A DNA stretch of 64,000 nucleotides from a virus (lineage: Duplodnaviria > Heunggongvirae > Uroviricota > Caudoviricetes): IMG/VR virus record IMGVR_UViG_3300046474_000142; one strand, 5' to 3'. The translations under genes and the position numbers were made by a program. Shown here piece by piece: positions 1,745 through 42,108 of the stretch. How positions within the stretch are numbered: the stretch's first letter is position 1; every line of letters starts with the position of its first letter. The notes beneath the pieces were generated by a model. It was not told the DNA's origin. It did no database searches and worked only from the letters and a program-made list of their open reading frames with translations.

Positions 1745-1793
1745 TCGAATCCTCAACCAACCGGCCCGACAGGGCAAACAAAAGGAGAACACC

Positions 1794-5138: not shown

Positions 5139-5145
5139 TCGACAC

Positions 5146-5180: not shown

Positions 5181-5205
5181 TTTCTGAATGATCTAAGGAG
5201 ATGGC

Positions 5206-11796: not shown

Positions 11797-12375
11797 ATGG
11801 TCTACGGAGTAGGTGTTTATGAGAGAGGGGAGTTTCCAGCGTACGTATGCGGAAGGCAGACCAAGGAGTACGTCTTGTGGAAGGGAATGCTGGAAAGATG
11901 CTACAGTGATAAACTGCACGCTAGGAAGCCGTCTTACGTTGGATGCTCTGTGTCAGAAGACTTCAAGTTCTTTCAAGAGTTCGCCCGCTGGGCTAACCGA
12001 CAGGTTATTTTCGGGGAGGTAGGAGTGCATCTGGACAAAGACTTGCTGGTTAAAGGGAACAAAGTGTACAGCCCGGAAACTTGTGTACTCGTACCGAAGG
12101 ATGTCAACCTGCTCTTAACTAAGCGTGAAGCGGAGCGCGGGCTTTATCCTATAGGAGTTTCGTTAGATAAGGGGCGAGGCTTATATGCCGCAGAGGTAAG
12201 GTTAAACGGTAAGAAAAAGAACCTCGGAAGGTTCCCTACGCCGGAAGACGCATTCGCTTCATACAAAACTGCGAAGGAAGCTCAAGTAAGGGCTGTAGCA
12301 GAAAAGTTCAAAGATTCGCTTGACCCAAGGGCATACGTAGCACTACAATCTTACCAAGTCGAACTGACAGACTAA
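11797..12375 (+). CDS. AP2-domain homing-endonuclease-like protein, family 2 (degenerate HNH)
   Basis: N-terminal WKGMLERCYS...YVGCSVSEDF; central HLDKDLLVKGNKVYSPETCVLVP (HNH-like layout); AP2/ERF-like GVSLDKGRGLYAAEVRLNGKKKNLGRFPTPEDAFASYKTA. Paralogs lie at 14039 and 25001. Confidence 0.6.
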   Translation: MVYGVGVYERGEFPAYVCGRQTKEYVLWKGMLERCYSDKLHARKPSYVGCSVSEDFKFFQEFARWANRQVIFGEVGVHLDKDLLVKGNKVYSPETCVLVPKDVNLLLTKREAERGLYPIGVSLDKGRGLYAAEVRLNGKKKNLGRFPTPEDAFASYKTAKEAQVRAVAEKFKDSLDPRAYVALQSYQVELTD

Positions 12376-18042: not shown

Positions 18043-18834
18043 ATGAAGAAACTGTTCGCAATCGCAGCAATCGCCCTGTCCCTGTCGGCCTGCACTCGTA
18101 TCGAAACTGGCGAAGTCGGCCTCCGCGTGAACTTCGACAAGACCGTGGAAGCAACCGAACGTACCGCTGGCTCGTTCAATCAGACCATCGTGGGCGACAT
18201 CATCAAGTTCCCGGTGCGTGAAATCTCGGTGGATGTGCAAGACCTCCGGCCTCTGGCAGCGGACAATAGCACGATGTCCGACTTCGACGTAACGGTGGTG
18301 TACAACATCAACCCGAACAGCGTCTCGGACCTGTACATCAACAAGAGCCATAGCTTCCACGCTACGGCCAACGATGGCACCACGTACCTGATGCACTCGT
18401 ACCTGCAAACGGCGATTCGCAACGCTGTCTACAAGGTGGCCCGTAACTACCAGTCGCTCGCAATGAACGACTCGCGTTCCGAAATCGAAGTGAAGATTCT
18501 GGAACAAGTCAAGGAAACGCTGAAGGGCGAGAAGCTGGACGGTGCGCTGCTGGTGTCGCAAGTGCAAGTCAAAAGCATCGCACCATCGGAAGCCGTTCGT
18601 AACGCAGCGAACCAACTGGTACAAGCGAAAGCGGAACTCGCGGCGAAGGAAGTGGAAGTGAACACTGCGAAGAAGGAAGCAGAGCGTATCGCAGCCCTGA
18701 ACGCCAACTCCGGTGCAATCAGCTACATGAACGCACAAGCGCAAATGAAGATCGCTGAAGGTATCGCTGAAGGCAAGGTGCAAACCATCGTCGTGCCTTA
18801 CGATTTCAAAGGCATCGTCAACGCAGGTAAGTAA
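18043..18834 (+). CDS. SPFH (band-7/stomatin-prohibitin)-domain lipoprotein
   Basis: Signal peptide with lipobox LSLSAC-T. ETGEVGLRVNFDKT and the following region resemble the SPFH/HflC fold. C-terminal coiled coil. Confidence 0.5.
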   Translation: MKKLFAIAAIALSLSACTRIETGEVGLRVNFDKTVEATERTAGSFNQTIVGDIIKFPVREISVDVQDLRPLAADNSTMSDFDVTVVYNINPNSVSDLYINKSHSFHATANDGTTYLMHSYLQTAIRNAVYKVARNYQSLAMNDSRSEIEVKILEQVKETLKGEKLDGALLVSQVQVKSIAPSEAVRNAANQLVQAKAELAAKEVEVNTAKKEAERIAALNANSGAISYMNAQAQMKIAEGIAEGKVQTIVVPYDFKGIVNAGK

Positions 18835-18886: not shown

Positions 18887-19891
18887 ATGAAGAAACTGTT
18901 TGCTGGTATCATCCTGTCGCTGGCTACCGTAGTGGCCTTCGCAATGCCCCGTCCATCGGACATCGAAAACGCTCTGGCTGCACGGGACTACCAATCAGCC
19001 AAGAGCATGACGCAAGAAGTGCTGCGTGAGCGTCCCGACAGTGCGAAAGCCCACCTGTTCAACGCCTACGTGCTGCTGAAGGCTGACAACGACCGGGGCG
19101 CTGCTGCCGCTGAGCTGAAGACGGCTCGACTGCTGGACACGAACCACAAGGTACAAGACTCGGCCCTGTTCGGACGTACCGTGGCAGAGCTGGAACGGGC
19201 AGTTCCGGTGCAGCGTGTAGCCCCAAAGCCTTCGTACGCCTCTCAGCCAGTCGCCACTACGTACGTGGAAACGGTTGGTGACTCGGCTCTGGTAAAACTG
19301 CTGAAGTTCTTGTTCTGGACTACGATCATCGGCATTATCGTGTACGTGCTCTACAAGCTGCTTACCCGGAAACGTCAGGTAACTTCGTGGATGGATGTTC
19401 CGCACGTTCCGTACACCCCGGATGTACTCCCGGCTGGTGGCAGTCTGCAACCCCGCCCGTATGTGAATCATGGCCGTACCTACGATGCCCCGCCTCATCC
19501 GGTGTATCAACCGGCTTACGTAGCGCCTCAGCCGAGTACGGTGGTAGTGAACAGTGGCAACAACCACGGCAACGATCTGTTGACTGGCATGTTGATTAGC
19601 GATATGATGCATCACGGTAGCCATGACACACACGGCCACTCGCATAGCAATCGTGACACTTACGTGGAACGTGAATATGTTGCACCGGCCCCGGTGTACG
19701 AGGCACCCCGTACTACCGACTACGAGACTAGCCGTTCCTCGTACTCGTCGGGCAGCGATGATGACTGGAAATCCAGCAGCTCGTCGTCCAGCTCTTCCAG
19801 CAGTGACTCGTGGAGTTCGTCGTCCTCGTATGACAGCGGTTCGTCCTCTTCCTACGACAGCGGCAGCAGCGGTGGCGGTGGCTGGGACTGA
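18887..19891 (+). CDS. secreted/membrane protein with a TPR-like N-terminal domain, one TM helix and a Ser-rich low-complexity C-terminus
   Basis: Signal-like N-terminus MKKLFAGIILSLATVVAFA; TM segment LFWTTIIGIIVYVLYKLL; tail SSSSSSSSSSDSWSSSSSYDSGSSSSYDSGSSGGGGWD. Confidence 0.5.
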   Translation: MKKLFAGIILSLATVVAFAMPRPSDIENALAARDYQSAKSMTQEVLRERPDSAKAHLFNAYVLLKADNDRGAAAAELKTARLLDTNHKVQDSALFGRTVAELERAVPVQRVAPKPSYASQPVATTYVETVGDSALVKLLKFLFWTTIIGIIVYVLYKLLTRKRQVTSWMDVPHVPYTPDVLPAGGSLQPRPYVNHGRTYDAPPHPVYQPAYVAPQPSTVVVNSGNNHGNDLLTGMLISDMMHHGSHDTHGHSHSNRDTYVEREYVAPAPVYEAPRTTDYETSRSSYSSGSDDDWKSSSSSSSSSSSDSWSSSSSYDSGSSSSYDSGSSGGGGWD

Positions 19892-21769: not shown

Positions 21770-21927
21770 TGCAACGCAAAGAATTTATGTCCGCAGCTCA
21801 GACCCGCGCCATCGGCAACGCCCCTCGTACCCACGAGAACTGCATCCGTCTGCTGAAGGAAGCAAAGCTGGCCCCAGTGGCCCGTCCGGGTAAGACTGCT
21901 AAGGACGCTGCCCGCAAGGCTCGTTAA
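21770..21927 (+). CDS. small basic protein (52 aa)
   Basis: ATG 21770 after aggagaaaacaa. The longer track ORF from 21649 would run through the tRNA, so the short form is preferred. Confidence 0.4.
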
Positions 21928-22508
21928 TGGCTGCTAGACTCATCGAAGTCCAGTGGACCGAACACTTCTACTACGACGAGTCTAGTCCTACGTGCCTGAG
22001 ATGGAATCGGGACGTGTTCAGGGGTCGGCACCCGTACAAATTCAAGACGAAGGGTGATGTAGCAGGTAACACAGGTAAAGGCAACTGCTTCATATGGCTG
22101 TACGGTGTCCCCTACCTAGCTCACAGAGTTATATGGGAGATGCATAACGGGTCAATAACCGACTCAGAGCTTGTGATAGACCATATCGACGGGAATGGGA
22201 AGAACAACGTCATATCGAATTTGAGGCTAGTCACTAACAAAGTTAATGCTCAAAACAGTAAGTTACATGCTCACAATTCATCTGGAACTTGTGGTGTTTC
22301 TTACCGAGAGTTGGAGAACGAGCATGGAACTACGTACTACTACTGGGTAGCTAACTGGAAGGAAAATGGAAAGTACAAGCGAAGGTCGTTTTCTATTCTG
22401 AAGTACGGCGACGATTTAGCTAGAACTTTGGCTGAAAAAGCAAGGGCTGAAGCAATAGCTAGAATGAACGCTTGCGGCGAGAGCTACACTGTAAGGCATG
22501 GATTATAG
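21927..22508 (+). CDS. HNH-AP2 homing endonuclease
   Basis: FYYDESSPTCLRWNRD; IDHIDGNGKNNVISNLRLV; AP2-like tail NACGESYTVRHG. Confidence 0.8.
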   Translation: MAARLIEVQWTEHFYYDESSPTCLRWNRDVFRGRHPYKFKTKGDVAGNTGKGNCFIWLYGVPYLAHRVIWEMHNGSITDSELVIDHIDGNGKNNVISNLRLVTNKVNAQNSKLHAHNSSGTCGVSYRELENEHGTTYYYWVANWKENGKYKRRSFSILKYGDDLARTLAEKARAEAIARMNACGESYTVRHGL

Positions 22509-26330: not shown

Positions 26331-27170
26331 ATGAGCAACACTATTGACTGGACCGTGCTGGCTGTGAAGTTGGACGAAGCAGGGTCGAGCTGGCGAGAAA
26401 TCGCGGATATGCTGAAGAAGCCGAAGAGCACCGTCAGTGACTTCCTCCGGGGCTATCATGCTCAGAAGGCAATCGCAGAGGGTAACGATGGCTACGACAA
26501 CACCCGCATCCTCTTCATCTCGGACTTGCACGTACCCTACCATCATAAGAATGCTTTGCCGTTCTTGGAGGGGCTGAAGAAGAAGTACAATCCGACACGG
26601 GTTATCTGCCTTGGCGATGAACTGGATCATCACGCGATGTCGTTCCACGACAGCGACCCTGACCTGCCATCTGCCGGTGACGAGCTTCGCCGTGCTCTAC
26701 CTGTCATCAAGGAACTTGAGAAGATGTTCCCAGTGATGGACTTGATTGACTCTAATCACGGAAGCATGGCTTTCCGCAAGGCGAAGCACCACGGGATTTC
26801 GAAGCACTACATTCGTAGCTACAACGAAGTTCTTGAGGTTGGAAACGGTTGGAAGTGGTATAATGACCTTGTGCTAGATATGAGTGAGTGGGGCAAACCT
26901 GATGTGTACGTGCATCACGGTAAGACGAAGAAGGCCGTAGCAACGAGCCGTGCGATGTCGATGTCCCATGTATCGGGCCATTACCATGAAAGCTACGGGG
27001 TGGAGTTTTGGAGTAACCCAAAAGGCTTGTACTTCGGAATGAATTCGGGCTGCTTGATCGATGATAAGCAGTTAGCATTCGCGTACAATAAGGTGTTCCC
27101 ACACCGCCCCATCATCGGAACTACGCTTATTATCAACGGTAATCCGGTGCTAGAGGTAATGGAACTGTGA
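26331..27170 (+). CDS. calcineurin-like metallophosphoesterase with an N-terminal HTH-like segment
   Basis: ILFISDLHVPYHH (motif I); VICLGDELDHH (GDxxD); DSNHG (GNH). The N-terminal WREIADMLKKPKSTVSDFLRG is HTH-like. Confidence 0.65.
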   Translation: MSNTIDWTVLAVKLDEAGSSWREIADMLKKPKSTVSDFLRGYHAQKAIAEGNDGYDNTRILFISDLHVPYHHKNALPFLEGLKKKYNPTRVICLGDELDHHAMSFHDSDPDLPSAGDELRRALPVIKELEKMFPVMDLIDSNHGSMAFRKAKHHGISKHYIRSYNEVLEVGNGWKWYNDLVLDMSEWGKPDVYVHHGKTKKAVATSRAMSMSHVSGHYHESYGVEFWSNPKGLYFGMNSGCLIDDKQLAFAYNKVFPHRPIIGTTLIINGNPVLEVMEL

Positions 27171-27736
27171 CCAACTGGGCTGACTTGTTCTACTACGACG
27201 AGACTAGCCCTAGCTGCCTGAGATGGAAAGTAGAGAGAACCTGCGGGAAAGGGAGGGTGCATGTCCTTGCTGGCGACCCTGCTGGTTCTCCTACAGCGAA
27301 CGGATATTGGCAAGTTGAAGTAGGTGACACTGGCTACCTGTGCCATAGGATTGTTCTGGAACTATTTGGCAACGTTGTAGATGGTCTGTTCGTAGATCAC
27401 ATCGACCACGACAGGTTCAATAACCGGATCGGGAACTTGAGGGCAGTTAGCCGCAGCCTTAACAACAGGAACTCATTGGGGCGTTGTGACAACACTAGTG
27501 GTGTGGTGGGCGTGTCTCGGCACGTTATCAAAGATAAGTACCACTACTGGACAGCCGAGTACTCGACGCTAGAAGGGAAATCTGTTAAGATGAGCTTTTC
27601 GGTGAACAAACTTGGAGAGCAACATGCATTCGATCTTGCTTGTAAAGCTAGGAAGGAAGCAGTAGATAAACTAAATGCCGAGGGAGCCGGGTACACCCCG
27701 GACCACGGACAACCTAAAGGAGAAACAAATGAGTGA
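27167..27736 (+). CDS. HNH-AP2 homing endonuclease
   Basis: GTG start overlapping the upstream TGA. FYYDETSPSCLRWK; VDHIDHDRFNNRIGNLRAV; AP2-like tail NAEGAGYTPDHG. Confidence 0.8.
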   Translation: MTNWADLFYYDETSPSCLRWKVERTCGKGRVHVLAGDPAGSPTANGYWQVEVGDTGYLCHRIVLELFGNVVDGLFVDHIDHDRFNNRIGNLRAVSRSLNNRNSLGRCDNTSGVVGVSRHVIKDKYHYWTAEYSTLEGKSVKMSFSVNKLGEQHAFDLACKARKEAVDKLNAEGAGYTPDHGQPKGETNE

Positions 27737-29360: not shown

Positions 29361-30401
29361 ATGAACATCAAACCAAGAATCATGACTCCTACCGATAGTT
29401 ACGTTATCGTCTACCCGGAGTTCGTAGCACTGGCTGATACCCAGTTCGAAGACTGCCGCTGGACGCATAAGGAAATCGCGGTAGAGAAGGACAAGCAGGA
29501 TATGCTTGTGAATGTCAGCCCGGCAGCTCGCCATGCCATCACTACGGGCCTGAAGCTGTTCACCAGATACGAGATGTTCGCCGGTAACGAGTACTGGATG
29601 GGCCGTGTCATCAAAGCGTTCCCTCGTCCTGAGATTCAGCGTATGGCAGGCGTCTTCGGAGCTTTCGAACTGCAAGTCCACGCCCCGTTCTACAACAAGC
29701 TGAACGGAGTGCTGGGACTGGATACGGACGAGTTCTACACTTCGTACGTCAACGATCCTGTGCTGGACAGCCGTGTGAAGTTCCTCGACCGAGCTGTGGA
29801 TAGCAAGGACGATCTGCTGTCTCTGGCGGTGTTCTCGATGATGGAAGGTGGCGTACTGTTCGCTAACTTCGCTCTATTCAAGTCGTTCCAGAGCAAAGGC
29901 CAGAACTTCATCGGCAACGTGGTGCGTGGTATCGACCAATCCGTTGTGGACGAAGGGCTGCACCAAACTGGCGGTGCTATGATCTTCCGTAAGGCTATCG
30001 AAGAGCTGAAAGAGCTGCTGTCGCCGGAAGCATTCAAGGAGTTGTGGCGTTCGCTGTGCAACCGTATTCGTCGTGCTGCGAAGAAGTTGGCAGAACACGA
30101 ATTCCGCATCTCGGATATGCTGATGGAGCAGGGCGACATTGGTACTGGTATTACTGCCCTGTCGCTGAAGCAGTTCGTCATGAGCCGTATCAATATCTGC
30201 CTGAACGATTTGGGCGTGCCGGTACTGTTCAGCAAGAAGCAAATCGGTGCGAACCCGATTGCGGAGTGGTTCTATGGCGGAATTCAAAAGTATCAACAGA
30301 ACGATTTCTTCGTAGGCAAAGGCAGGGAGTACACTACTACGTGGGATGAGGACAGGTTTATTTGGCGCTTGCCTGAAGGTGTAAGTAATGCTGTGGAATG
30401 A
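29361..30401 (+). CDS. nrdB: ribonucleotide reductase class I small subunit (NrdB/R2)
   Basis: MEGGVLFANFALFKSF and VVRGIDQSVVDEGLHQ match the R2 iron-ligand helices (EG.FF and I.RDE.LH). Confidence 0.7.
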   Translation: MNIKPRIMTPTDSYVIVYPEFVALADTQFEDCRWTHKEIAVEKDKQDMLVNVSPAARHAITTGLKLFTRYEMFAGNEYWMGRVIKAFPRPEIQRMAGVFGAFELQVHAPFYNKLNGVLGLDTDEFYTSYVNDPVLDSRVKFLDRAVDSKDDLLSLAVFSMMEGGVLFANFALFKSFQSKGQNFIGNVVRGIDQSVVDEGLHQTGGAMIFRKAIEELKELLSPEAFKELWRSLCNRIRRAAKKLAEHEFRISDMLMEQGDIGTGITALSLKQFVMSRINICLNDLGVPVLFSKKQIGANPIAEWFYGGIQKYQQNDFFVGKGREYTTTWDEDRFIWRLPEGVSNAVE

Positions 30402-30924
30402 GTACTTCGTGCTCGATGAGGCAGTCCCATCCGGCCTCCGGTGGGCTGTCAACATCTACGATAGCAAGGGCAGGTTGACAAAAGCAAGAGTTGGAGCCGT
30501 TGCAGGAAGTTTAAGCGGACAAGGGCGCTATCAAGTTAAGGTTGCAGGACGTGTGTACCGCTGTCACCGTATCATTTACGAGATGCTTCACGGGCCGTTG
30601 CCTGATTGCATGATGGTAGATCATAAGGACGGAGACTGCACAAACAACGTTCACTCTAACTTGGTGGCGCTCACTGCGGCTGGAAACCAGCAGAATCGCA
30701 GAAAGAGTTCGCGGAACAAGTCTGGCATCACTGGCGTCTACGTCCACAAAATCAAACACTATACGTACGTTAAGGCGTACATCGGCACAGAAGTCGTGGC
30801 GAATATTCCGGCACACAAAATCGGGCTAGAGGCTGCTATGAAAATGGCAGAGAAGGCCCGTGTGGAAGCTGTGAGAATAGCTAACGCTAATGGAGCCAAC
30901 TACACAGAGAGGCATGGTAAATGA
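30388..30924 (+). CDS. HNH-AP2 homing endonuclease inserted between nrdB and nrdA
   Basis: FVLDEAVPSGLRWAVN; VDHKDGDCTNNVHSNLVAL; AP2-like tail NANGANYTERHG. Confidence 0.8.
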   Translation: MLWNEYFVLDEAVPSGLRWAVNIYDSKGRLTKARVGAVAGSLSGQGRYQVKVAGRVYRCHRIIYEMLHGPLPDCMMVDHKDGDCTNNVHSNLVALTAAGNQQNRRKSSRNKSGITGVYVHKIKHYTYVKAYIGTEVVANIPAHKIGLEAAMKMAEKARVEAVRIANANGANYTERHGK

Positions 30925-33174: not shown

Positions 33175-33402
33175 ATGTACGAAATTTTTAGCATGGAAGG
33201 TTGCGCTAAGTGCGTAGACGCTGCCAAGCTTCTGACCGCTAAGGGTCTGGAATTCAAAGTGACCAAGATTGACGAGGATGCTAATGCAGCAGCGTTCATC
33301 CGCCGTGAACAGCATCGCTCGATGCCGCAGATTTACAAGGACGGCGTGCTCATCCCCGGTGGCTTTGCAGGATTGCAAGCGTACTTCGCAAAGCAGGAGT
33401 GA
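33175..33402 (+). CDS. glutaredoxin (NrdH/Grx-like redoxin for the RNR)
   Basis: CAKC active site near the N-terminus. MPQIYKDGVLIPGGFAG matches the Grx glutathione-site motif (P.IF..G..IGG). Confidence 0.7.
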   Translation: MYEIFSMEGCAKCVDAAKLLTAKGLEFKVTKIDEDANAAAFIRREQHRSMPQIYKDGVLIPGGFAGLQAYFAKQE

Positions 33403-33950
33403 CCGTGAACTGGGGAGATTACTTCTACTACGACGAAAGCTCCCCGTCCTGTCTCCGCTGGAAGGTTGACAGGCCGCGTGGAAGCGGTTCTGACTTACTT
33501 GTGCAAGCCGGAGATGCCGCTGGCGGATTAGCAGGTAACGTGTACTATCGTGTCCGCTTAGACGGCACAAAGTACATGGTGCATCAAATAATCTGGGAGA
33601 TGGGAAATGGCCCTATCCCGGCTGGGTACGAAATCGACCACGAGAACGGTGACAAGGCTTGCAACCGCATTGGAAATCTTCGGTGCGTGACAAAAACTGT
33701 GAACCAGCATAACAGATCGAAGCCGGTAACAAACACTAGCGGAGTAACAGGCGTCAGCTTGACTACGAAGCGTTCAAAAGATTACTGGCGTGCTTCGTGG
33801 AGGGAAGATGGGAAGCTGCGCAACAAGTGCTACAGTGTCGAAGAGTTCGGAAGCGATGAAGCGTTCCAACTTGCCTGCAACTGGCGTGCAGAGATGATTA
33901 AAAGGCTGAACGAAGTTGGGGCTCAGTACACGACTCGCCACGGAACGTAA
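33399..33950 (+). CDS. HNH-AP2 homing endonuclease (start is GTG 33399 or 33405)
   Basis: NWGDYFYYDESSPSCLRWKVD; IDHENGDKACNRIGNLRCV; AP2-like tail NEVGAQYTTRHG. Its 5' end is near-identical in DNA to the remnant at 7969. Confidence 0.8.
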   Translation: MTVNWGDYFYYDESSPSCLRWKVDRPRGSGSDLLVQAGDAAGGLAGNVYYRVRLDGTKYMVHQIIWEMGNGPIPAGYEIDHENGDKACNRIGNLRCVTKTVNQHNRSKPVTNTSGVTGVSLTTKRSKDYWRASWREDGKLRNKCYSVEEFGSDEAFQLACNWRAEMIKRLNEVGAQYTTRHGT

Positions 33951-34097: not shown

Positions 34098-34694
34098 ATG
34101 ACAATAGATTTAACGGGTAAGCGCAAGGCGGCACCAACCGTTGCAGCAATACATAACTACTGGAACTCTAGGATTAAGGGGCAAGACGCTGAGCACTGGG
34201 CGAACACTCTAGGAGACTTGAGCTTTGAAGTCATCCTAGAAGATAACGGCAAATCTTGCTACGCGTGCGGAAAGCCCTGTACCCCTCAGCGTTGCCACAT
34301 TATCGCTCACCAGTTTGGCGGGAGCGTAGACCCCTCAAACTTGTTCTTGATGTGCCATGAATGCCACGCCGAGAACCCGGACGGGCTGCATGAGTCGGTT
34401 TTCTTTAACTACGTAAGGAACAGAGAATTCTACGTAACGAAGCAAGCGAAGGATATGACTCGCCACTTTACGGCCTTAATCAGTTCCCACCCGGAGGGGA
34501 AGCGTGTGCAGTCTGAAATTGAAAACAACCCCGGTGTGTGCTCAGCCGTGGTAGAGTTCTTCAAGCAAGATGCGGAAGGTCGGAAGCAACTCGGCATCGG
34601 AGTCGGCAATAAAGTCACATCCGCAACATGGGCCGGGGCGCTGTTTATGAAGCTGGTAGAACTTTCAAATAAGGAGTTAGTATGTGTAAGTTAA
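34098..34694 (+). CDS. HNH endonuclease
   Basis: CYACGKPC...RCHIIAHQFGG...NLFLMCHECHAENPDG. Confidence 0.7.
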   Translation: MTIDLTGKRKAAPTVAAIHNYWNSRIKGQDAEHWANTLGDLSFEVILEDNGKSCYACGKPCTPQRCHIIAHQFGGSVDPSNLFLMCHECHAENPDGLHESVFFNYVRNREFYVTKQAKDMTRHFTALISSHPEGKRVQSEIENNPGVCSAVVEFFKQDAEGRKQLGIGVGNKVTSATWAGALFMKLVELSNKELVCVS

Positions 34695-35161
34695 TCATCG
34701 CAGGAAGTCGTAGCATCAAAGATTACGCAGTAACACGGGCTGCGATAATCGAATCCGGCCTCTGGGCGAAGTACGGTAAGAAGATTCACGTTATCTCCGG
34801 CGAAGCCGAAGGCCCGGACAAGCACGGTGAAATCTTCGCTGAGAAGGCCGGTCTGAAGCTGTCCAAGAAGCCCGCTAAATGGGGCAACATCAAGGCTCCG
34901 GGCGCAGTGGTACGCCACAACAGCCGAGGCGCTTACAACGCTCTGGCGGGCCATTGGCGCAATCAGGAGATGGCAGACATCGCTGATGCCGTTCTGGTGG
35001 TCTGGGACGGTAAGAGTACGGGTTCGCTCGATATGCTGCACCGTATGCTGGCAATGGAGAAGCCTTGCTACCTGTACCCGCTGCGTATCTCGGCTGATCT
35101 GCTGGCATCGCTGGAAGAGAAGGGTTGCATCATCTTGTACCCGAACAGCTACACCGAATAA
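34682..35161 (+). CDS. DprA/Smf-like SLOG-superfamily Rossmann-fold protein (short, DUF2493-like)
   Basis: LIIAGSRS..DYA...IHVISGEAEGPDKHGE...ADAVLVVWDGKSTGSLDML parallels the DprA Rossmann core (VGSR...SG.A.G.D...H ... vlVvE....SGsl.T). Confidence 0.45.
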   Translation: MCKLIIAGSRSIKDYAVTRAAIIESGLWAKYGKKIHVISGEAEGPDKHGEIFAEKAGLKLSKKPAKWGNIKAPGAVVRHNSRGAYNALAGHWRNQEMADIADAVLVVWDGKSTGSLDMLHRMLAMEKPCYLYPLRISADLLASLEEKGCIILYPNSYTE

Positions 35162-35162
35162 A

Positions 35163-35339
35163 ATGCTTGACCCAGACGAAATTAGTGAACTACAATACGA
35201 AGTATGCAGCGGACGTAAGAACCACTACCAACGCTGCCAGTGTGATGTAGAATTCGGGACTTGCCCCGGTGTTAAATACTGTCCGAACTCGGACCAAACC
35301 TGCCCTGAAGGGCAAACCCAAGGAGAAGAAAATGAGTAA
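35163..35339 (+). CDS. small Cys-rich protein (7 Cys in 58 aa), possibly Zn-binding
   Basis: ATG directly after the upstream TAA with no obvious RBS. CSGRKNHYQRCQCDVEFGTCPGVKYCPNSDQTCPEG. Overlaps the next gene by 8 nt. Confidence 0.3.
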   Translation: MLDPDEISELQYEVCSGRKNHYQRCQCDVEFGTCPGVKYCPNSDQTCPEGQTQGEENE

Positions 35340-35772
35340 CGCTATCATCGTAGCAAATCTGGAAGCTCTGCTGGCTGCTGTTGAAGCCCAACCGGAAACC
35401 CTGTTCGACCTGAGCTTCTTCCGTAACGAAACCGAGTGCGGTTCGAACTTCTGCGCGGTCGGCCTCGCCTGCACCATGCCGGAGTTTCAGGCGATGGGCT
35501 TTAATCTGAGGGCCACTGCTAACGACTACAGCCGAGATGGTTTCTCGTATCGCGCCGAAATCAACGGGGCGTTGGCAATGTGGAACAACCGCACCGACTT
35601 CGCTTTCGGAACTGACTCGTACCAGCGCTGTTTCGAACCCGCGAACGAAGGTAGTCTCGATAACGAGCTTGGCTACGAGTTCGACCGGGACACTGACACC
35701 GCAAACATGACCGACAAAGAGCTGGCTGTGGCCCGTCTGAAGAAGCAAATCGCAATCCTGAAAGGAGAATAA
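35332..35772 (+). CDS. hypothetical protein
   Basis: 146 aa from ATG 35332 after the strong RBS aaggagaagaaa. Confidence 0.5.
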   Translation: MSNAIIVANLEALLAAVEAQPETLFDLSFFRNETECGSNFCAVGLACTMPEFQAMGFNLRATANDYSRDGFSYRAEINGALAMWNNRTDFAFGTDSYQRCFEPANEGSLDNELGYEFDRDTDTANMTDKELAVARLKKQIAILKGE

Positions 35773-35774
35773 GA

Positions 35775-35969
35775 ATGAGTCGTAACCAACGTGAAGGCCG
35801 TTTCATCCCCGGCTGGTGCTACAACCCTAGCTACCATTCCCAACGTGACAAGGATGGCAATCTGGTCCAGAAGATTCGTGCTGGCAAGCACTTCGATCTG
35901 AAGGTCATGTACAACAAGCAGATGGGGAAGACCTACTTCCGCGTCTACCGTGAAGGGGCATTTGAATGA
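35775..35969 (+). CDS. hypothetical small protein
   Basis: 64 aa; RBS aaaggagaataaga. Confidence 0.45.
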   Translation: MSRNQREGRFIPGWCYNPSYHSQRDKDGNLVQKIRAGKHFDLKVMYNKQMGKTYFRVYREGAFE

Positions 35970-36781
35970 GCGTTAGTATCGTAGGCTGCGAGTTTGGCCA
36001 TACCAAGACTACCTTCCCCGGTGGCGAGAGCTGTATCCGAGTAGCGCTTGGAACCTTCTTCGATGAAGAGTTGACCCTGCAACTAGATTTCGAATCGAAC
36101 GGCGACCTGATCGATCTGGCCTTGTTGGCTGATGCGCTCCGCCGTGAGCATCGTGGCGTTAAGCTCAACCTGTTTATGCCTTACGTACCATACGCTCGGC
36201 AGGACCGTGTGTGCAACCCCGGCGAGAGCCTGTCGATTAGAGTAGTGGCTGACTTCATCAACTCGCTGAAGTTCCATATGGTCGTTGTCGCGGACCCGCA
36301 CTCGGACGTTACCACGGCCCTGCTAGATAACGTGGTAGCTTACGCACAAGACTTCGGTGTTGACCGTGTGGCTCGCCGTGTCGGTGCAGATAACACTATC
36401 ATCGTTGCTCCCGATGCCGGGGCTTCGAAGAAGGCCAGCAAGTTCGCTAGGGCAGGCGGGTTCTCCGGTCTGATCCAAGCGGAGAAGGTGCGTGACCTTC
36501 TTACCGGCAAGATTCTGGAAACCCGTGTCCCCGACATCCTCGTGGGTGATATGGACTTCCTGATCGTAGACGACATCTGCGATGGTGGCCGTACATTCAC
36601 CGAGTTGGCAAAGGTGCTGCGCACAAAAACCACTGGCAAGATCATGCTGTACGTAACACACGGTATCTTCAGTGCTGGTGAAAAAGTATTTGACGGACTG
36701 ATCGATGATGTGTACACTGCTAATCCTGTCGGGGCAACTGGCAAAGCAGCAGTAGCAAGTGGCCGCGTCAAGGTACTGTAA
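35966..36781 (+). CDS. Ribose-phosphate pyrophosphokinase (Prs) homolog. It is a candidate Adps-like enzyme of a NARP1-type NAD+ reconstitution pathway.
   Basis: PYVPYARQDR (Prs signature YxRQDR). FLIVDDICDGGRTF (PRPP-binding loop of type I phosphoribosyltransferases). Confidence 0.7.
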   Translation: MSVSIVGCEFGHTKTTFPGGESCIRVALGTFFDEELTLQLDFESNGDLIDLALLADALRREHRGVKLNLFMPYVPYARQDRVCNPGESLSIRVVADFINSLKFHMVVVADPHSDVTTALLDNVVAYAQDFGVDRVARRVGADNTIIVAPDAGASKKASKFARAGGFSGLIQAEKVRDLLTGKILETRVPDILVGDMDFLIVDDICDGGRTFTELAKVLRTKTTGKIMLYVTHGIFSAGEKVFDGLIDDVYTANPVGATGKAAVASGRVKVL

Positions 36782-36832
36782 TACCCAAGGCGCTTCGTAA
36801 GGAGCGCTACCAACTAACCAAGGAGAATTGAA

Positions 36833-37051
36833 ATGGCTAAGCAACAACATGCAATCGGAACTCGCGTCGTGTTCTTTAACGGCTATGAGTTGGAAGACAT
36901 CACTACGGGTCGCATCTACACCATCGAAGGTGTCGATGAGCTAGGTGACGAGTACTTCATTGACGACGCAGGAGAACGCGACTTCGCAGCCGCTACTGGC
37001 AATGGTACTCCCGGCGAAGGTGATGGTGTGTACGTTGTAATCGTGGACTAA
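36833..37051 (+). CDS. hypothetical small protein
   Basis: 72 aa; RBS aaggagaattgaa. Confidence 0.45.
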   Translation: MAKQQHAIGTRVVFFNGYELEDITTGRIYTIEGVDELGDEYFIDDAGERDFAAATGNGTPGEGDGVYVVIVD

Positions 37052-37052
37052 A

Positions 37053-37631
37053 ATGGACTGGAACGATTACTTCGTATATGACGAGTCGAGTCCAAGCTGC
37101 CTTCGGTGGAGAGTTTCACGAAAGGGTAGTGGCAAGGGCAAGCCGAAGCTGCCGAATGACGTAGCTGGCGAAGTGTATGAAGGCGTTCCATACTACCAAG
37201 TAGCAGTGGCAGGTAAGAAGTGCTACGTACACAGGATCGTCTGGGAGATGCACAACGGCCCAGCCGGAGACTCAGAAATCGACCATGAAAATCTGAACAA
37301 GACGGATAATAGGGCAGGGAACCTTCGCCGGATTACACATGCCAGAAACATGCGAAATTGCAAGATGCAGCACAACAATTCTAGCGGCGTAACCGGCGTA
37401 GACTTCGATCCTGTAAAGAATCGTTGGCGTGCAAAATGGAAGGCGCTTGACGGGGCGCACAAGGGCCGAAGTTTCAGTGTCATAAAGTACGGAGAGGCAG
37501 CTTTCGATCTTGCGGTAAAAGCACGGGCAGATGCCATCTCAAAACTAAACCAATCCGGGGCAGACTACACAGTGAGCCACGGAGCTACCAAAGGAGAATT
37601 ACATGAAATGCAAACCACACCTGACGCTTGA
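37053..37631 (+). CDS. HNH-AP2 homing endonuclease inserted between the Prs-like and NAMPT-like genes
   Basis: FVYDESSPSCLRWRVS; IDHENLNKTDNRAGNLRRI; AP2-like tail NQSGADYTVSHG. Confidence 0.8.
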   Translation: MDWNDYFVYDESSPSCLRWRVSRKGSGKGKPKLPNDVAGEVYEGVPYYQVAVAGKKCYVHRIVWEMHNGPAGDSEIDHENLNKTDNRAGNLRRITHARNMRNCKMQHNNSSGVTGVDFDPVKNRWRAKWKALDGAHKGRSFSVIKYGEAAFDLAVKARADAISKLNQSGADYTVSHGATKGELHEMQTTPDA

Positions 37632-39300
37632 TAGTTACAAGCTCGATCATATTTCGCAGTACCCGGCTGGCACCCAGTACGTGTACTCCAACCTGACGGC
37701 CCGTTCCGCAGCTCACGCTAACATGGGCAAGCTGTTCGACAACAAGGTTGTGTTCGTCGGACTGTCGGGCTTCATTCAAGAGTTCCTGATCGAAGCATGG
37801 AACGAACACTTCTTCGCTCGTCCGAAGGCTGAAGTCGTGGCTGAGTACAAGCGCCGCTGCGACAACTTCCTGGGACCGGACGCCGTACGTACCGATCACA
37901 TCGCAGCACTGCACGACCTGGGCTACCTGCCGATCATGATTAAGGCGCTGCCGGAAGGCTCCCGCGTAGACATCAAAGTTCCGTTCCTGACGATCCGCAA
38001 CACCCTGCCGCAGTTCTACTGGCTGACGAATTATCTGGAAACCGTTCTTTCGGACGAACTGTGGCAGCAATGCACCATCGCTACCATCACGTACGAATAC
38101 CGCCGTATCCTGAACAAGTATGTCGAGCTGACCGGCTCCGATCTGGCCTTCGCTGATTGGCAGATTCACGACTTCTCGATGCGCGGCATGTGCGGCTGGC
38201 ACGGTGCAGCCAAAGGCGGTGCGGCCCACCTGTTCGTTTCCCGTGGCACCGATACGCTTCCGGCTATCGACTATCTGGAACAGTACTACGGTGCAGATGT
38301 GACGAAGGAACTGGTTGCTGGCTCCGTCCCGGCTACCGAGCACAGCGTCATGTGCATGGGCGGCAATGCTGAACTGGAAGCGCCTAAGTACGCCAGCTTC
38401 ACCGATGGGAACGGCAACAACATCCGAATCGAACTGGGCAGCGATGAACTCGCTACGTTCCACCGTTTGATCGCGGAAGTGTACCCTGGCGGCATCGTGT
38501 CCATCGTGTCGGACACCTGGGACTTCTGGCGCGTCATCACGGAGTACGCCCGTACGTTGAAGGAAGTGATTCTGGCGCGTAAGCCAAACGCCCTGGGCCA
38601 AGCCAAGGTAGTGTTCCGTCCTGACTCCGGCGATCCGGTGCAGATCATCACGGGCTTGCGCGCCATCGCCTTAGAAGATTTGGACGAAGACAACTACTTC
38701 AAGTACGATGTTGTCATCAAAGATGGCAAGTACTACGAGTTCGACCAAGACTTCTGTGGCGATTCCTGCAACTGCTTCATGGATACCAAACTAGGCCGTG
38801 AAGTGCCGGAGCACGAAGTCAAAGGTGCTGTCGAATGTCTGTACGACATCTTCGGCGGCGACATCACGGCCAAGGGCTACCGTACCCTGAACCAACGTGT
38901 CGGCCTGATCTACGGTGACAGCATTACGCTACAACGCTGCGAAGAAATCCTGCAACGCCTCATGGCGAAGGGCTTCAGTGCTGGTAACATCGTGTTCGGT
39001 GTTGGCTCGTACACCTACCAGTACATGACCCGCGACACGTTCGGCATGGCAGTGAAGGCTACGTTCGGCGTGGTGAACGGCGAAGAGCGCAACATCCAGA
39101 AAGACCCGAAGACTGGCGACGGCATGAAGAAGTCGGCCACTGGCCTGCTGCGTATCGAGAAGGAAGGCGACAAGTTCGTCCTGTACGACAAGCAATCGAT
39201 CTACGACGAAACCTGCGGTGAGCTGGAAGTCGTCTTCGTGGATGGTAAGCAGTACAACGCTCCTACGTTCGCACAGATCGTAGAGCGCCTGAAACAATAA
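37603..39300 (+). CDS. Nicotinamide phosphoribosyltransferase (NAMPT/NadV) family protein. It is a candidate Namat-like partner of the Prs homolog.
   Basis: TLDSYKLDHISQYP...QYVYSNLTAR; IKALPEGSRVDIKVPFLTIRNT...QFYWLTNYLETVL; IHDFSMRGM; VPATEHSVM. These align with human and bacterial NAMPT motifs (TDSYKVTHYKQYP, HDFGYRG, PAAEHST). Confidence 0.8.
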   Translation: MKCKPHLTLDSYKLDHISQYPAGTQYVYSNLTARSAAHANMGKLFDNKVVFVGLSGFIQEFLIEAWNEHFFARPKAEVVAEYKRRCDNFLGPDAVRTDHIAALHDLGYLPIMIKALPEGSRVDIKVPFLTIRNTLPQFYWLTNYLETVLSDELWQQCTIATITYEYRRILNKYVELTGSDLAFADWQIHDFSMRGMCGWHGAAKGGAAHLFVSRGTDTLPAIDYLEQYYGADVTKELVAGSVPATEHSVMCMGGNAELEAPKYASFTDGNGNNIRIELGSDELATFHRLIAEVYPGGIVSIVSDTWDFWRVITEYARTLKEVILARKPNALGQAKVVFRPDSGDPVQIITGLRAIALEDLDEDNYFKYDVVIKDGKYYEFDQDFCGDSCNCFMDTKLGREVPEHEVKGAVECLYDIFGGDITAKGYRTLNQRVGLIYGDSITLQRCEEILQRLMAKGFSAGNIVFGVGSYTYQYMTRDTFGMAVKATFGVVNGEERNIQKDPKTGDGMKKSATGLLRIEKEGDKFVLYDKQSIYDETCGELEVVFVDGKQYNAPTFAQIVERLKQ

Positions 39301-39326
39301 CGCCTACGGCGTAAGAAAGAAGCACT

Positions 39327-39584
39327 ATGACACTAGACATCTTCGGTAATCCGCTTTATACTGGTGATGTTGTCGTGTTCGCAGATGGAGATGGGCATGG
39401 CAGCGCACTGCTGGAAGTGTACGAAGTAGAGGAAGTTATTGGCAACAACACCGTGAGGGCTTCCCTGCTCTCCGGTGAATACGCTGGTAACGAGTTCTAC
39501 CTTCAGCACACCGACAAGCGCTGCTCCCTGATCCGTAACGTGTACAAGACCGCAGAACTGAACCGTAGTACCACTATCAACTAA
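39327..39584 (+). CDS. hypothetical small protein
   Basis: 85 aa; weak RBS. Confidence 0.4.
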   Translation: MTLDIFGNPLYTGDVVVFADGDGHGSALLEVYEVEEVIGNNTVRASLLSGEYAGNEFYLQHTDKRCSLIRNVYKTAELNRSTTIN

Positions 39585-39598
39585 CTAAGGAGAAAACA

Positions 39599-41008
39599 AT
39601 GCAAGCATTCGCACAACAAAACGGCCAACAAAAGACCTACATCGTCCTGCTGGACGACGAATCGGGTTCGATGGTATCCCTGCGTACCGCAGCTACCAAG
39701 GACCACAACACTACCGTCACTGGTATCAAGGATTCTGCTACCAAGTACCAGCAAGATACCATCGTGTCTAACTTCGGTTTCGGCTCCGGTGAAGTCCGCC
39801 GCTACGTGGTGAACTCCAACCCGCACGTTCTGGCTCCGAAGACTTCGTGGGTCGCATCGGGTGGCACTCCGGGCCGTAAGGCAATCAGGGAAGCAATCGA
39901 GCTGCTGAAGACGATGCCGGACTACAACAGCCCGAACGTAGCGTTTGCTATCTTCACTACCACTGACGGCGAATTCGACGGCGACTACTGGGACAACAAC
40001 CCGACCACCAAGGAAGCGGAGCTGGCCCACGAAATCGCAGAGCTGACCCGCACTGGCCGCTGGACCTTCGTGTTCCGTGTCCCGAAAGGTGGCCGTAAGC
40101 ATCTCGCTGGCCTGCGCATCCCGGCTGGCAACGTGCAAGAATGGGAAACTACTGCTGCTGGCATGGCTGCTTCGACCGTCCAGACCACGCAAGCGTTCGA
40201 TACGTTCTTCGCTACCCGTGCTACCGGCAAGACCAGCTCGACCGTGTTCTATGCTGACGCAACCAACGTCGATACGTCGAAGCTGGTGGACATTTCGAAG
40301 CGCACTTCGCTGTACGTGGTGGAAGATTATGAAAACGGTATCCAGATTCGTGACTTCATCCTGAAGCGCCGTCAGCGTTACCTGAAAGGCTCAGCTTTCT
40401 ATCAACTGTCGAAGACCGAGAAGCGTGTCGGCCCGAACAAGATGCTGGCTATCCGTGACCGCACTACCGGCGTAGTGTACGCTGGCAAAGAAGCACGTAC
40501 CATGCTGGGCCTGTCGTCGGTGGACAACATCACGCTGCATCCGGGCAACCATGGAAACTACGACATCTTCGTTCAGTCGGAGTCGGTGAACCGCAAACTG
40601 GTCAAAGGCTACGGTGTAATCTACTGGGAAGAAATCGGCGTACCGTTCACTCAGGAAGAAATCGACCGCTTTACCGGCGTGAAGCCTGCTGCTCCGGTGG
40701 CTCCGGCCAAACCGGCTGTGGTGCAACTGCCTGCTGTTCCGGTTAGCACTCGTCCGACTCCTTCGCCGCTGAAGCCGACTCCGAAGACTGTTCCGGCTCC
40801 GGTTACTCAAGTGGCGGTCGGCCTGAAGCCTGTAGCGTTCCCGGCTGTCAATGGTCGTGTGCGTTACCACTTGCCAACTGCTGACGCACTGTTCTACTCG
40901 ACCCGTGATGTCGCTCGTGAAGTGGCTCAATCACTGCCGGGTAAGAAGCAGTACGATGCCGGTCCTACCGCTCCGTACGGTCGTCGTTTCTTCGTCGCAG
41001 CGGCGTAA
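39599..41008 (+). CDS. von Willebrand factor A (VWA) domain protein with a Pro-rich linker
   Basis: MIDAS motif YIVLLDDESGSM (DxSGS). Pro/Ala/Val-rich segment KPAAPVAPAKPAVVQLPAVPVSTRPTPSPLKPTPKTVPAPV. Confidence 0.5.
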   Translation: MQAFAQQNGQQKTYIVLLDDESGSMVSLRTAATKDHNTTVTGIKDSATKYQQDTIVSNFGFGSGEVRRYVVNSNPHVLAPKTSWVASGGTPGRKAIREAIELLKTMPDYNSPNVAFAIFTTTDGEFDGDYWDNNPTTKEAELAHEIAELTRTGRWTFVFRVPKGGRKHLAGLRIPAGNVQEWETTAAGMAASTVQTTQAFDTFFATRATGKTSSTVFYADATNVDTSKLVDISKRTSLYVVEDYENGIQIRDFILKRRQRYLKGSAFYQLSKTEKRVGPNKMLAIRDRTTGVVYAGKEARTMLGLSSVDNITLHPGNHGNYDIFVQSESVNRKLVKGYGVIYWEEIGVPFTQEEIDRFTGVKPAAPVAPAKPAVVQLPAVPVSTRPTPSPLKPTPKTVPAPVTQVAVGLKPVAFPAVNGRVRYHLPTADALFYSTRDVAREVAQSLPGKKQYDAGPTAPYGRRFFVAAA

Positions 41009-41025
41009 TTAACGCTTGACAGGGT

Positions 41026-41102
41026 GGATAGGTAGCACTACAATGTTACTTATCCACTGAAACTTGCAAATCGTCCTAGCATATGTTATACTACTATCTT
41101 TA
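41026..41102 (+). promoter_or_regulatory. Tandem sigma70-type promoters: TTGACA-17-TACAAT (41026-41054) and TTGCAA-17-TATACT (41074-41102)
   Basis: Both have exact 17-nt spacers. The first contains the GTAGCACTAC motif and a GTGGATA/TATCCAC inverted repeat. Confidence 0.5.
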
Positions 41103-41114
41103 AGGAGGTAGTAG

Positions 41115-41684
41115 ATGAACGAGATTTTTGAGTACGATGAAACAAGCCCTTCGGGGCTGAGATGGAAGGTTGACAGGTACACAGGCCACTCCAAGACACG
41201 AAAGCACATTTCCGCTGGGGACGTAGCTGGACATTGGAGCAAGGCAGGTTACTGGACTGTCAACGTCAACAACAGAGCCTACTACGTACACCGTGTTATC
41301 ATGGAACTACACGGTTGCGATATAGATGGACTTGAGGTTGACCATCGTGACAAGAACAGGTCGAATAACAGGTTAAGTAATCTGCGTGTCGTACCTAGAG
41401 TATTCAACTCTCGGAACATAACTATGAGGGACGATAACTCAAGCGGAGTTACTGGCGTTGTATGGCAGGAATCGAAGTATAGTACAGTTGCTACCTCTTG
41501 CTGGCAAGAGGCCGGAAGACAACGCCGCAAAAGTTTTTCAGTAGGCAAGTATGGGCTGCTAGGGGCGTTTGCCAAGGCAGTCCAGTTTAGAAAAGAAACC
41601 ATCCAGAGGCTAAACACCGAAGGATACGATTATACGGAAGGGCACGGAAATGACGCTACGAATCGAGAGCGGGGATTTGTTTAA
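41115..41684 (+). CDS. HNH-AP2 homing endonuclease
   Basis: FEYDETSPSGLRWKVD; VDHRDKNRSNNRLSNLRVV; AP2-like tail NTEGYDYTEGHG. Confidence 0.8.
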   Translation: MNEIFEYDETSPSGLRWKVDRYTGHSKTRKHISAGDVAGHWSKAGYWTVNVNNRAYYVHRVIMELHGCDIDGLEVDHRDKNRSNNRLSNLRVVPRVFNSRNITMRDDNSSGVTGVVWQESKYSTVATSCWQEAGRQRRKSFSVGKYGLLGAFAKAVQFRKETIQRLNTEGYDYTEGHGNDATNRERGFV

Positions 41685-42108
41685 CGCCGCAATGGGGAAG
41701 CGAGTTCTAATCGCACACGGATGCAACAGGCAGGGGAAGATGGCGTCTGGTTTTGCAGGGATCATCAAGAAGTTGTACCCGTTCTGTTATACTGCCTACA
41801 TGCAAGAGCACAACGATTTCGGTCTGGTAGGCGGGGACGTAGTGTTCGCTACGTCTGAAGATAGTAAGGTAGTGGTAGCTAACTGCATTACACAAGATTT
41901 CTATGGACGGGATGGGAAAAAGTACGTAGAATACGACTGGGTTGTTGATGCAATGTCGAAAGTCGCTACCTACGCTAAGCAAGCTAACGCTCCCGTCATC
42001 TTCCCGTTCATTGGCGGTGGCTTGGCGGGCGGTGATCGTAAGCGTCTGGCTGCGATCTTCGAAGCCGTCTTCCACGATGTTGACGCAACGCTGTATATTC
42101 AAGACTAA
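41650..42108 (+). CDS. macro-domain (ADP-ribose binding/processing) protein
   Basis: GDLFNAAMGKRVLIAHGCNRQGKMASGFAGII ... GDVVFATSE..KVVVANCI ... PVIFPFIGGGLAGGD aligns with the macro-domain blocks (GDIT..AIVNAAN..GGGV.GAI, G.A.iT.a, iAFPaIStGvyG). Confidence 0.55.
   Translation: MTLRIESGDLFNAAMGKRVLIAHGCNRQGKMASGFAGIIKKLYPFCYTAYMQEHNDFGLVGGDVVFATSEDSKVVVANCITQDFYGRDGKKYVEYDWVVDAMSKVATYAKQANAPVIFPFIGGGLAGGDRKRLAAIFEAVFHDVDATLYIQD

Follow-up and report, generated by a model that had tools for sequence, protein, structure and literature searches.

A gene pair predicted to encode NARP1-type NAD+ reconstitution in an uncultured phage, with a selfish endonuclease gene between the two enzyme genes

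The DNA analyzed here, a 64,000-nt stretch of the IMG/VR virus record IMGVR_UViG_3300046474_000142 (hereafter, the window), is phage DNA from an uncultured phage with a genome of ~90 kb and contains two genes that very probably encode the NAD+ reconstitution pathway NARP1. The first gene (35966-36781, + strand) specifies a 271-aa protein of the PRPS fold that resembles phosphoribosyl pyrophosphate (PRPP) synthetase (Prs), and the second (37603-39300, + strand) a 565-aa protein of the nicotinamide phosphoribosyltransferase (Nampt) fold; they are 821 nt apart on the same strand. An initial annotation made from the letters alone had placed four + strand open reading frames (ORFs) at 35966-39300 and read them as a candidate NARP1-type module. 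All four ORFs are found at exactly these coordinates, and the motifs that it quoted (YARQDR, DSYK, HDFSMRG and EHSVM) are present. Phage "Prs" and "Nampt" pairs have been identified as Adps, which turns ADP-ribose (ADPR) together with ATP into ADPR pyrophosphate (ADPR-PP), and Namat, which forms NAD+ from ADPR-PP and nicotinamide (Osterman et al., bioRxiv 10.1101/2024.02.11.579819). The same study found NARP1 in 4.3% of phage genomes, an Adps clade that is separate from cellular Prs and adjoined by Namat in 97% of its members, and no phage with both NARP1 and NARP2. Following this scheme, NAD-depleting host defences (Thoeris, DSR, SIR2-HerA, SEFIR and similar systems) would cleave NAD+ into ADPR and nicotinamide. 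Adps would then attach the beta,gamma-pyrophosphate of ATP to ADPR at position 1'' of its free ribose, and Namat would exchange the pyrophosphate of ADPR-PP for nicotinamide, yielding NAD+ directly without a nicotinamide mononucleotide (NMN) intermediate or an NMN adenylyltransferase (NMNAT). As a NARP1 locus, the pair extends an anti-defence system already described to a new lineage of uncultured phages and leaves the picture of the pathway unchanged. Since NARP1 allows phages to overcome a whole class of NAD-depleting defences, its recognition matters for host range and for the choice and engineering of therapeutic phages.

Both proteins are assigned to NARP1 by clade placement, diagnostic motifs, reciprocal search scores and the lack of a detectable NMNAT gene in ~82 kb of the genome. 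Namat and Nampt folds superpose at ~1 Å, so that a comparison of folds would not tell them apart. The initial annotation held that sequence alone cannot separate a Prs/Nampt pair from Adps/Namat; this view is out of date, as the structure papers of 2026 provide signatures for both families (PMC12774641, PMC13586617). The comparison that it proposed, against Adps and Namat on one side and housekeeping Prs and NadV on the other, places both proteins with Adps and Namat.

The 565-aa protein matches NAPRTase (7e-32) and NAMPT_N (2e-7) in Pfam and phrog_448, "nicotinamide phosphoribosyl transferase" (1.5e-192), in PHROGs. Its SCH motif, G468-S-Y-T-Y-Q-Y-M-T-R-D478, fits the Namat consensus GSX-phi-X-phi-X-phi-TRD with its third and seventh positions aromatic (PMC12774641), while the same site reads GGGLLQ(Q/K)x(D/T)RD in the NadV of the KVP40-like phage VH7D, in KP27, in Xanthomonas Nampt and in human NAMPT. 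The window protein has the Namat state at S192, T245, S440, S469, Y470, Y472 and Y474, where KVP40-type, Xanthomonas and human Nampt carry G/R/A/L/Q/K. The catalytic core is likewise retained: D13, Y15, F189, R192, D215, R306 and D308 of the Namat of Bacillus phage SPbetaL1, for which the structures 9W5X/9W5W are available (PMC12774641), correspond to D10, Y12, F191, R194, D217, R339 and D341, and the catalytic His247 is kept. The NAD+ contacts seen in the SPbetaL1 structure are conserved at D10, Y12, F191, S192, R194, D217, A244, R339 and D341, and further at G438, D439, G468, S469, Y470, Y474, T476, R477 and D478. Searches with phmmer against the PDB agree with these residues, as the window protein scores 477 bits against 9W5X/9W5W, ~179 against mammalian NAMPT and 168 against Xanthomonas Nampt. 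The reciprocal search with VH7D NadV reverses the order (405 bits for the Xanthomonas and 359 for the human enzyme vs. 242 for 9W5X). A neighbour-joining (NJ) tree of 17 sequences with 500 bootstraps separates VH7D, KP27, Xanthomonas and human enzymes from all others, including the window protein, at 100%. Judged by these sequence comparisons, the NAMPT-like protein groups with characterised Namat and not with Nampt/NadV. As a separate observation, the solved "nicotinamide phosphoribosyltransferase" in PDB entries 9ke8/9keo groups with Firmicute-type Namat and has the clamp motif GAQTYQRNTRD, with no aromatic residue at positions 3 and 7.

The 271-aa protein shows matches to Pribosyltran_N (4.5e-8) and Pribosyl_synth (1.8e-7) in Pfam and to phrog_619, "ribose-phosphate pyrophosphokinase" (7.8e-80), in PHROGs. 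The activity and structure of the Adps of Vibrio phage ICP1 have been published, and the family features described include the catalytic Lys185, a set of acceptor residues, a remodelled pyrophosphate (PP) loop at Cys215-Ser220 and the loss of the C-terminal helices alpha11-alpha12 (PMC13586617). All of these features can be traced in the window protein. K174 aligns with the catalytic lysine (Lys185 in ICP1, Lys162 in SPbetaL1 and Lys194 in Escherichia coli Prs), and the acceptor residues R78, H112, D150, D202, D203 and D206 correspond to ICP1 R87, H121, D161, D212, D213 and D216. The PP loop DDICDGGRTF (C205-D-G-G-R-T210) is identical in Felixounavirus Si3 and in phages pf16 and alia and resembles DDICDGAASF of ICP1, whereas E. 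coli Prs has DDMIDTGGTL with the canonical DTGGT. Alpha11-alpha12 are absent (271 aa vs. 315 aa in E. coli Prs, with the alignment ending ~40 residues before the E. coli C-terminus), and the N-terminal helix of PRPS is missing as well. Of the adenine contacts, F18 of ICP1 is kept as F17. In phmmer searches under one scoring scheme, the protein reaches 193 bits with pf16 gp164, 181 with alia gp231, 141 with ICP1 Adps (42% identity) and 95 with SPbetaL1 Adps, vs. 72 with E. coli Prs and 52-81 with other solved Prs. It fails all NCBIfam housekeeping Prs equivalogs (53-118 bits vs. cut-offs of 296-536; best, NF002095 with 117.9 vs. 296) and passes only the broad subfamily model TIGR01251 (123.6 vs. 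113 bits), with ICP1 Adps presenting the same pattern. Four canonical Prs and 12 Adps-like proteins are split in an NJ tree at 86.6% bootstrap, and the alignments assign the Prs-like protein to characterised Adps and not to housekeeping Prs. A PDB sequence search with ICP1 Adps returned ordinary Prs only, with no Adps chain among the matches. Additionally, the 547-position profile phrog_12872 matches the Adps-like protein with its N-terminal part and the Namat-like protein with its C-terminal part, which suggests that the two enzymes are fused in certain phages.

The search for NMNAT relied on Pfam, using scans of the larger ORFs of the window and precomputed matches for the window and for the records L002, L003, L017 and L018, which span it and its flanks. 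Where compared, L002, L003 and L017 agree with the window at 99.9-100% identity. L018 matches window positions 1-2779 at 98.9% identity before diverging, which indicates a related phage. No NMNAT-type Pfam domain was detected in the window or in these four records, together ~82 of ~90 kb, in agreement with the earlier remark that no NMNAT gene is visible in the window. The initial annotation had also named a result that would speak against NARP1, namely both proteins inside the canonical Prs and NadV clades together with an NMNAT; neither part of it was found in the NJ trees or the ~82 kb scanned. The lack of an NMNAT match in these ~82 kb sets the locus apart from NARP2 of Vibrio phage KVP40, which combines Nampt with an NMNAT/Nudix protein. 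Both systems use a Nampt-fold enzyme to rebuild NAD+ from nicotinamide, but the window protein is only 28.7% identical to the KVP40-type NadV of VH7D, falls into the opposite clade and has a Prs-like partner. NARP3 (PnuC and NadR) was also considered and dropped, as no such domains were found.

Compared with the reference NARP1 systems of SPbetaL1, E. coli phage Bas63 and ICP1, the window encodes the same two enzyme families on one strand. The Adps proteins share the catalytic lysine, acceptor residues, remodelled PP loop and C-terminal truncation, the Namat proteins share the catalytic core and the aromatic SCH motif, and no NMNAT accompanies the pair. Sequence identity is low (42% to ICP1 Adps and 42-45% to ICP1 and SPbetaL1 Namat), which illustrates that the pair can be called from sequence signatures even at ~42% identity. 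The window Namat differs as a long form with two insertions, one at about aa 256-280 and the other at about aa 352-402. Other Gram-negative phage proteins of the Namat clade carry insertions at both of these sites as well, including that of Si3, a member of the same genus (Felixounavirus) as Bas63 (JohannRWettstein), in which NARP1 was proven in vivo. The window further departs from the references in the presence of two additional ORFs, one of them an endonuclease gene, between the enzyme genes, and in one substrate-contacting position of each enzyme, discussed below.

Several points weigh against a NARP1 assignment, and some of them bear on classical salvage, in which PRPP would be made from ribose-5-phosphate, NMN from PRPP and nicotinamide, and NAD+ by an NMNAT of the host or an unseen one of the phage, in a NARP2-like or generally NAD-boosting role. 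Nearly all database records annotate both proteins accordingly, and the 565-aa protein passes an NCBIfam equivalog model (529 bits vs. a cut-off of 405); however, ICP1 Namat passes the same model, which therefore does not discriminate. About 8 of the ~90 kb lie outside the NMNAT scan and could hold such a gene. Namat enzymes also remain able to form NMN from PRPP in vitro (PMC12774641). Against salvage, 94% of phages with a KVP40-type Nampt, the clade of NARP2, encode NMNAT, and SPbetaL1 Adps yields no PRPP-type product in vitro (bioRxiv 10.1101/2024.02.11.579819); no NMNAT was detected in ~82 kb here. The trees are small NJ trees of 16-17 sequences and not maximum-likelihood trees; they exclude the window protein from the Nampt clade with full bootstrap support. 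Nampt-state residues are absent from it, and its partner fails every housekeeping equivalog and has CDGGRT in place of the ribose-5-phosphate loop DTGGT. In favour of salvage, the nearest homologue of the 565-aa protein is bacterial: an Acinetobacter NadV (53% identity, sister at 98% bootstrap) that is encoded on the chromosome in a prs-nadV-nrtR operon. The record concerned (L004, CAKLQF020000015.1) is labelled "Acinetobacter phage MD-2021a" but is a bacterial chromosomal contig with prsA_2, nadV and nrtR at 4099-7316, and its gene annotated as NMNAT/ADPR pyrophosphatase is NrtR (NrtR winged-helix, 5e-22, and Nudix in Pfam). Operons of this type, known from Acinetobacter and Shewanella, are controlled by a repressor that is released by ADPR, and their dedicated second Prs copy was called unexplained (Rodionov et al., 2008; PMC2330246). 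They differ from the window pair in their chromosomal location, ADPR-responsive repressor and housekeeping or unassigned role, and have historically been read as PRPP-dependent salvage. Both Acinetobacter proteins nevertheless bear Adps/Namat signatures, DDICDGGATF with its DDICDGG loop in the Prs paralogue and GSFTYNYLTRD in NadV, so that these nearest cellular relatives look like bacterial NARP1-type modules and not like counter-examples; NARP1-type activity was reported for a Paenibacillus pair (PMC12774641). The signatures suggest that NrtR-regulated prs-nadV operons are bacterial NARP1-type modules, and the close kinship that alignments indicate between the phage enzymes and these ADPR-induced operons is mildly new. 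Taken together, classical salvage is an unlikely reading of the window pair.

The remaining objections concern individual residues and the state of the locus. The sole exception among the conserved NAD+ contacts of Namat is SPbetaL1 Arg40, which is replaced by Ala37 and followed by His38. The selectivity-clamp loop (SCL) to which it belongs has a Namat-like length, but Ala37-His38 takes the place of the Arg, Lys or Tyr that is typical of the third residue in a loop described as variable (PMC12774641). S-A-(A/G/S)-H is kept at this site in all eight relatives of the phage introduced below, and this lineage-conserved Ala-His variant is mildly new. In Adps, the adenine contact Phe92 of ICP1 corresponds to Cys83, also a cysteine in alia, pf16 and the Acinetobacter protein and a gap in SPbetaL1. 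It is conceivable, but very unlikely, that the Ala-His clamp relaxes donor selectivity to the point that a module with mainly NARP1 activity also uses host PRPP to a substantial extent. SPbetaL1 Namat clamp mutants keep NMN synthesis (PMC12774641), but the single SCL mutation R40A reduces SPbetaL1 activity only 1.3-1.7-fold, the conserved helix motif is intact with both aromatics present, His38 could itself stack on adenine, and any NMN would still require NMNAT. A decaying or inactive remnant, with an operon disrupted by the endonuclease insertion, is the least probable alternative and is scarcely credible. A selfish gene does lie inside the operon and overlaps the start of Namat, but both enzyme ORFs are full length with all catalytic residues present, no terminator-like site was found on the + strand between the genes, the Namat ATG has a good Shine-Dalgarno sequence (AAAGGAGAA) in front of it, inside the endonuclease reading frame, Felixounaviruses tolerate the same arrangement, and orthologues in the eight relatives are 57-82% identical. 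With regard to NARP1 itself, direct observation covers the genes present and their conserved order, the clades to which the proteins belong, the retention of their catalytic and specificity residues and the absence of the endonuclease from the relatives, while the predicted enzymatic activities and anti-defence phenotype are extrapolated from homologues.

The spacer between the enzyme genes contains a 72-aa ORF (36833-37051, + strand) in a position of variable cargo and, starting one base past its stop, a free-standing homing-endonuclease-type gene (37053-37631, + strand), as had been described initially. The 192-aa endonuclease product matches HNH_3 (1.5e-13) and AP2 (1.9e-7) in Pfam. The gene fills most of the 821-nt spacer, and its 3' end overlaps the start of Namat by 29 nt. 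The earlier statement that the pair is split by a homing endonuclease holds at the level of the operon, in that a free-standing gene lies between the enzymes, but both enzyme ORFs are left uninterrupted. Pfam and NCBIfam gave no match for the 72-aa ORF; homologues occupy the same position in the relatives L020 (61%) and L021 (35%), and no similarity was found to the 72-aa ORF that Pseudomonas phage TIETA has in the equivalent place. The relatives used here are eight phage genomes of ~90 kb from IMG/VR (L019-L026) with Namat proteins 66-82% identical to that of the window. In all eight, a homologue of the window endonuclease is missing between Adps and Namat. Their spacers (at about 6400-7000 of each locus) differ in cargo from phage to phage and contain unrelated small ORFs (one or two), a lipoprotein-like ORF or, in the case of L025 (6395-6973), a NUMOD4-like endonuclease of another type. 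Among other phages, Aeromonas phage CC2 has six small genes between Adps and Namat, and Felixounavirus Si3 and Erwinia phage Harbringer carry a free-standing HNH gene in the same slot. Both of these genes (Si3 gp040 and Harbringer_115) overlap or abut the start of Namat, but the HNH subfamilies differ (34% identity over 128 aa for Si3 gp040, and no BLASTP alignment to the window endonuclease at E <= 0.01 for Harbringer_115). Going by these alignments, the endonucleases of Si3, Harbringer and the window are independent insertions, and an endonuclease between the two enzyme genes is not unusual but recurs independently in other phages.

The window endonuclease and five HNH_3/AP2 paralogues 39-47% identical to it form a family of six within the window. 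With three other genes of HNH or AP2 type, the 64 kb contain nine in all, an unusually heavy load of selfish genes. These nine genes, mostly with HNH_3 and AP2 domains, are located at 5206-5712, 9826-10377, 11797-12375 (weak AP2 match only), 21927-22508, 27167-27736, 30388-30924, 33399-33950, 37053-37631 and 41115-41684. Among seven of the endonucleases together with the gene at 5206-5712, BLASTP identities range from 30 to 48%, and the gene at 9826-10377 is present in both the window and the near-identical record L017. As the endonuclease is absent from the corresponding sites of the relatives, belongs to a family of paralogues and occupies a spacer of varied cargo, its insertion is best read as that of a recently arrived, selfish, free-standing gene at a recurrent landing site. 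The comparative data make the Adps-Namat spacer look like a recurrent insertion hot spot within intergenic cargo DNA, and its repeated use by selfish endonucleases and other cargo is mildly new. Another of the endonuclease genes lies between the genes for the small and large subunits of ribonucleotide reductase.

Outside the spacer, gene order is largely kept in the eight relatives: a SLOG gene, followed at some distance by o64, Adps, variable cargo, Namat, o85, o469, a macro-domain gene, o89, o77 and o133. The small ORF o64 (64 aa; 35775-35969, + strand), whose stop overlaps the Adps start, has counterparts of 42-53% identity directly 5' of Adps in six relatives (L019-L022, L024 and L025). 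The 85-aa ORF o85 (39327-39584, + strand) has no family match but is conserved in the relatives (38-87% identity), directly 3' of Namat in seven and after o469 in L026. The 469-aa gene o469 (39599-41008, + strand) lies between Namat and the macro gene. Its product contains a MIDAS motif (DxSxS … TTDG), and in an AlphaFold2 model (pLDDT 82) the N-terminal ~200 aa correspond to integrin I-domains in Foldseek (E 3e-7); in the model, a second domain comes after the vWA domain, then a linker rich in proline and finally a small C-terminal domain that is conserved. Over 800 uncharacterised phage proteins belong to the family, which has no Pfam model. The gene occupies the same position in all eight relatives, and in more distant phages it is found among replication genes with no NARP1 neighbours, for which reason it was rejected as a component of the pathway; sequence and model together indicate a vWA-domain protein that is probably unrelated cargo.

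The initial annotation had pointed to macro-domain and SLOG/DprA-like genes nearby, and both are real according to Pfam and PHROGs. The macro gene (41650-42108, + strand) gives a weak Pfam Macro match and a clear phrog_335 "phosphatase" match (7e-33), and its product shares 35% identity with the macro protein of Vibrio phage K460 (L014), whose gene lies between Adps and Namat. A profile built from the window, K460 and TIETA proteins matches the yeast ADPR-1''-phosphate phosphatase Poa1p (6lfu/6lfq) over its full length (E 1e-11 to 2e-10) and also OARD1-class macro domains. The ADPR-1''-phosphate phosphatase Adpp extends NARP1 to NARP1-AP, which defeats RES-type defences that make ADPR-1''-phosphate, and NARP1-AP is operationally defined by a macro gene within two genes of the pair (bioRxiv 10.64898/2026.01.28.702374). 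On the evidence of these profile matches, the macro gene is likely to be the Adpp of this extended pathway; its product would dephosphorylate ADPR-1''-phosphate released by RES-type defences to ADPR, the substrate of Adps. Vibrio phage Gary has the order Adps-Adpp-Namat, an architecture shared by K460, and TIETA, which is in the matching set of PAK_P3-like phages, has Adps, a small ORF, Namat, a small ORF and the macro gene. The window resembles these systems in having a Poa1p-class macro gene near the pair and in the same direction, but this gene is the fourth 3' of Namat, at a distance of 2349 nt, and so falls outside the two-gene definition, which counts against its assignment. It is nonetheless 3' of Namat in all eight relatives. 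The vWA gene separates the two in this lineage, joined in the window and in L019 by a second HNH_3 and AP2 endonuclease gene (41115-41684, + strand), a paralogue 41% identical to the gene at 37053 whose 3' end overlaps the macro start by 35 nt; among the eight relatives, only L019 has it at this site (94%). The macro gene is probably no bystander but a component pushed away from Namat by the vWA and endonuclease genes. Where selfish endonucleases and unrelated cargo insert between the components of a module, rules that demand strict adjacency can overlook some of them, as with the candidate Adpp here, which the published two-gene window would not include.

The SLOG/DprA-like gene (34682-35161, + strand) is supported by weak Pfam matches to DNA_processg_A and YAcAr and by phrog_289 (1e-20). 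It is 56-79% identical and in the same relative position in L019-L022 and L024-L026, while the L023 sequence stops short upstream. DprA/SLOG-like genes also occur within a few genes of Namat or Nampt in unrelated phages, namely the window lineage, pf16 (pf16_161, L005:8025-8612) and KP27 (KP27_261, L015:1035-1622), and it can be hypothesized that their products are accessory processors or sensors of ADPR derivatives. A broader and doubtful proposal treats the whole block from SLOG to Macro (34682-42108) as an ADPR-salvage island that funnels immune-derived ADPR derivatives into NARP1. Here, the macro protein would turn ADPR-1''-phosphate into ADPR for the pathway, the SLOG protein would be a new accessory that degrades or captures cyclic-ADPR-type signals in a RyDEP-like role, and the lineage-specific Ala-His clamp would serve as an alternative grip on adenine.

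The locus is situated in the replication and nucleotide-metabolism arm of the genome, which runs on the + strand from ~2.5 to 43 kb and includes DNA ligase, primase-helicase, a UvrD-like helicase, family A DNA polymerase and ribonucleotide reductase, while the structural arm occupies the - strand from 43 to 64 kb of the window. A promoter-like site (TTGACC-18-TACAAT; 35167-35196, + strand), found by a consensus scan only with 10 of 12 matches, could drive transcription from the gene at 35269 through Namat, but such sites are not significantly enriched in the region. PADLOC returned negligible matches only. Over positions 27603-49300, the window agrees at 100% identity with a contig of 90,135 bp from run SRR26077923 (Logan SRR26077923_195131). 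Among GenBank phages, megablast with the region found no more than a 42-nt match and hence no close DNA relative. The DNA polymerase shares 48-51% identity with its counterparts in Aeromonas phages and in PAK_P3-like Pseudomonas phages, and by this measure the phage is distantly related to the PAK_P3-like group.

Further features of the genome were noted in passing. Two proteins encoded at 10448-11497 and 6487-7596 have, respectively, the PF18909 dATP/dGTP diphosphohydrolase N-terminal domain (6.4e-29) and a weak Thy1 (ThyX-like) match, domain assignments that together hint that the phage edits its nucleotide pool or has a modified base. An SPFH/Band 7 gene (18043-18834) followed by a TPR-containing gene (18887-19891) lies in the middle of the replication arm. 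Beyond position 64000, and thus outside the window, a cluster of 13 tRNA genes (L003:324-2950) adjoins the terminase/portal region.

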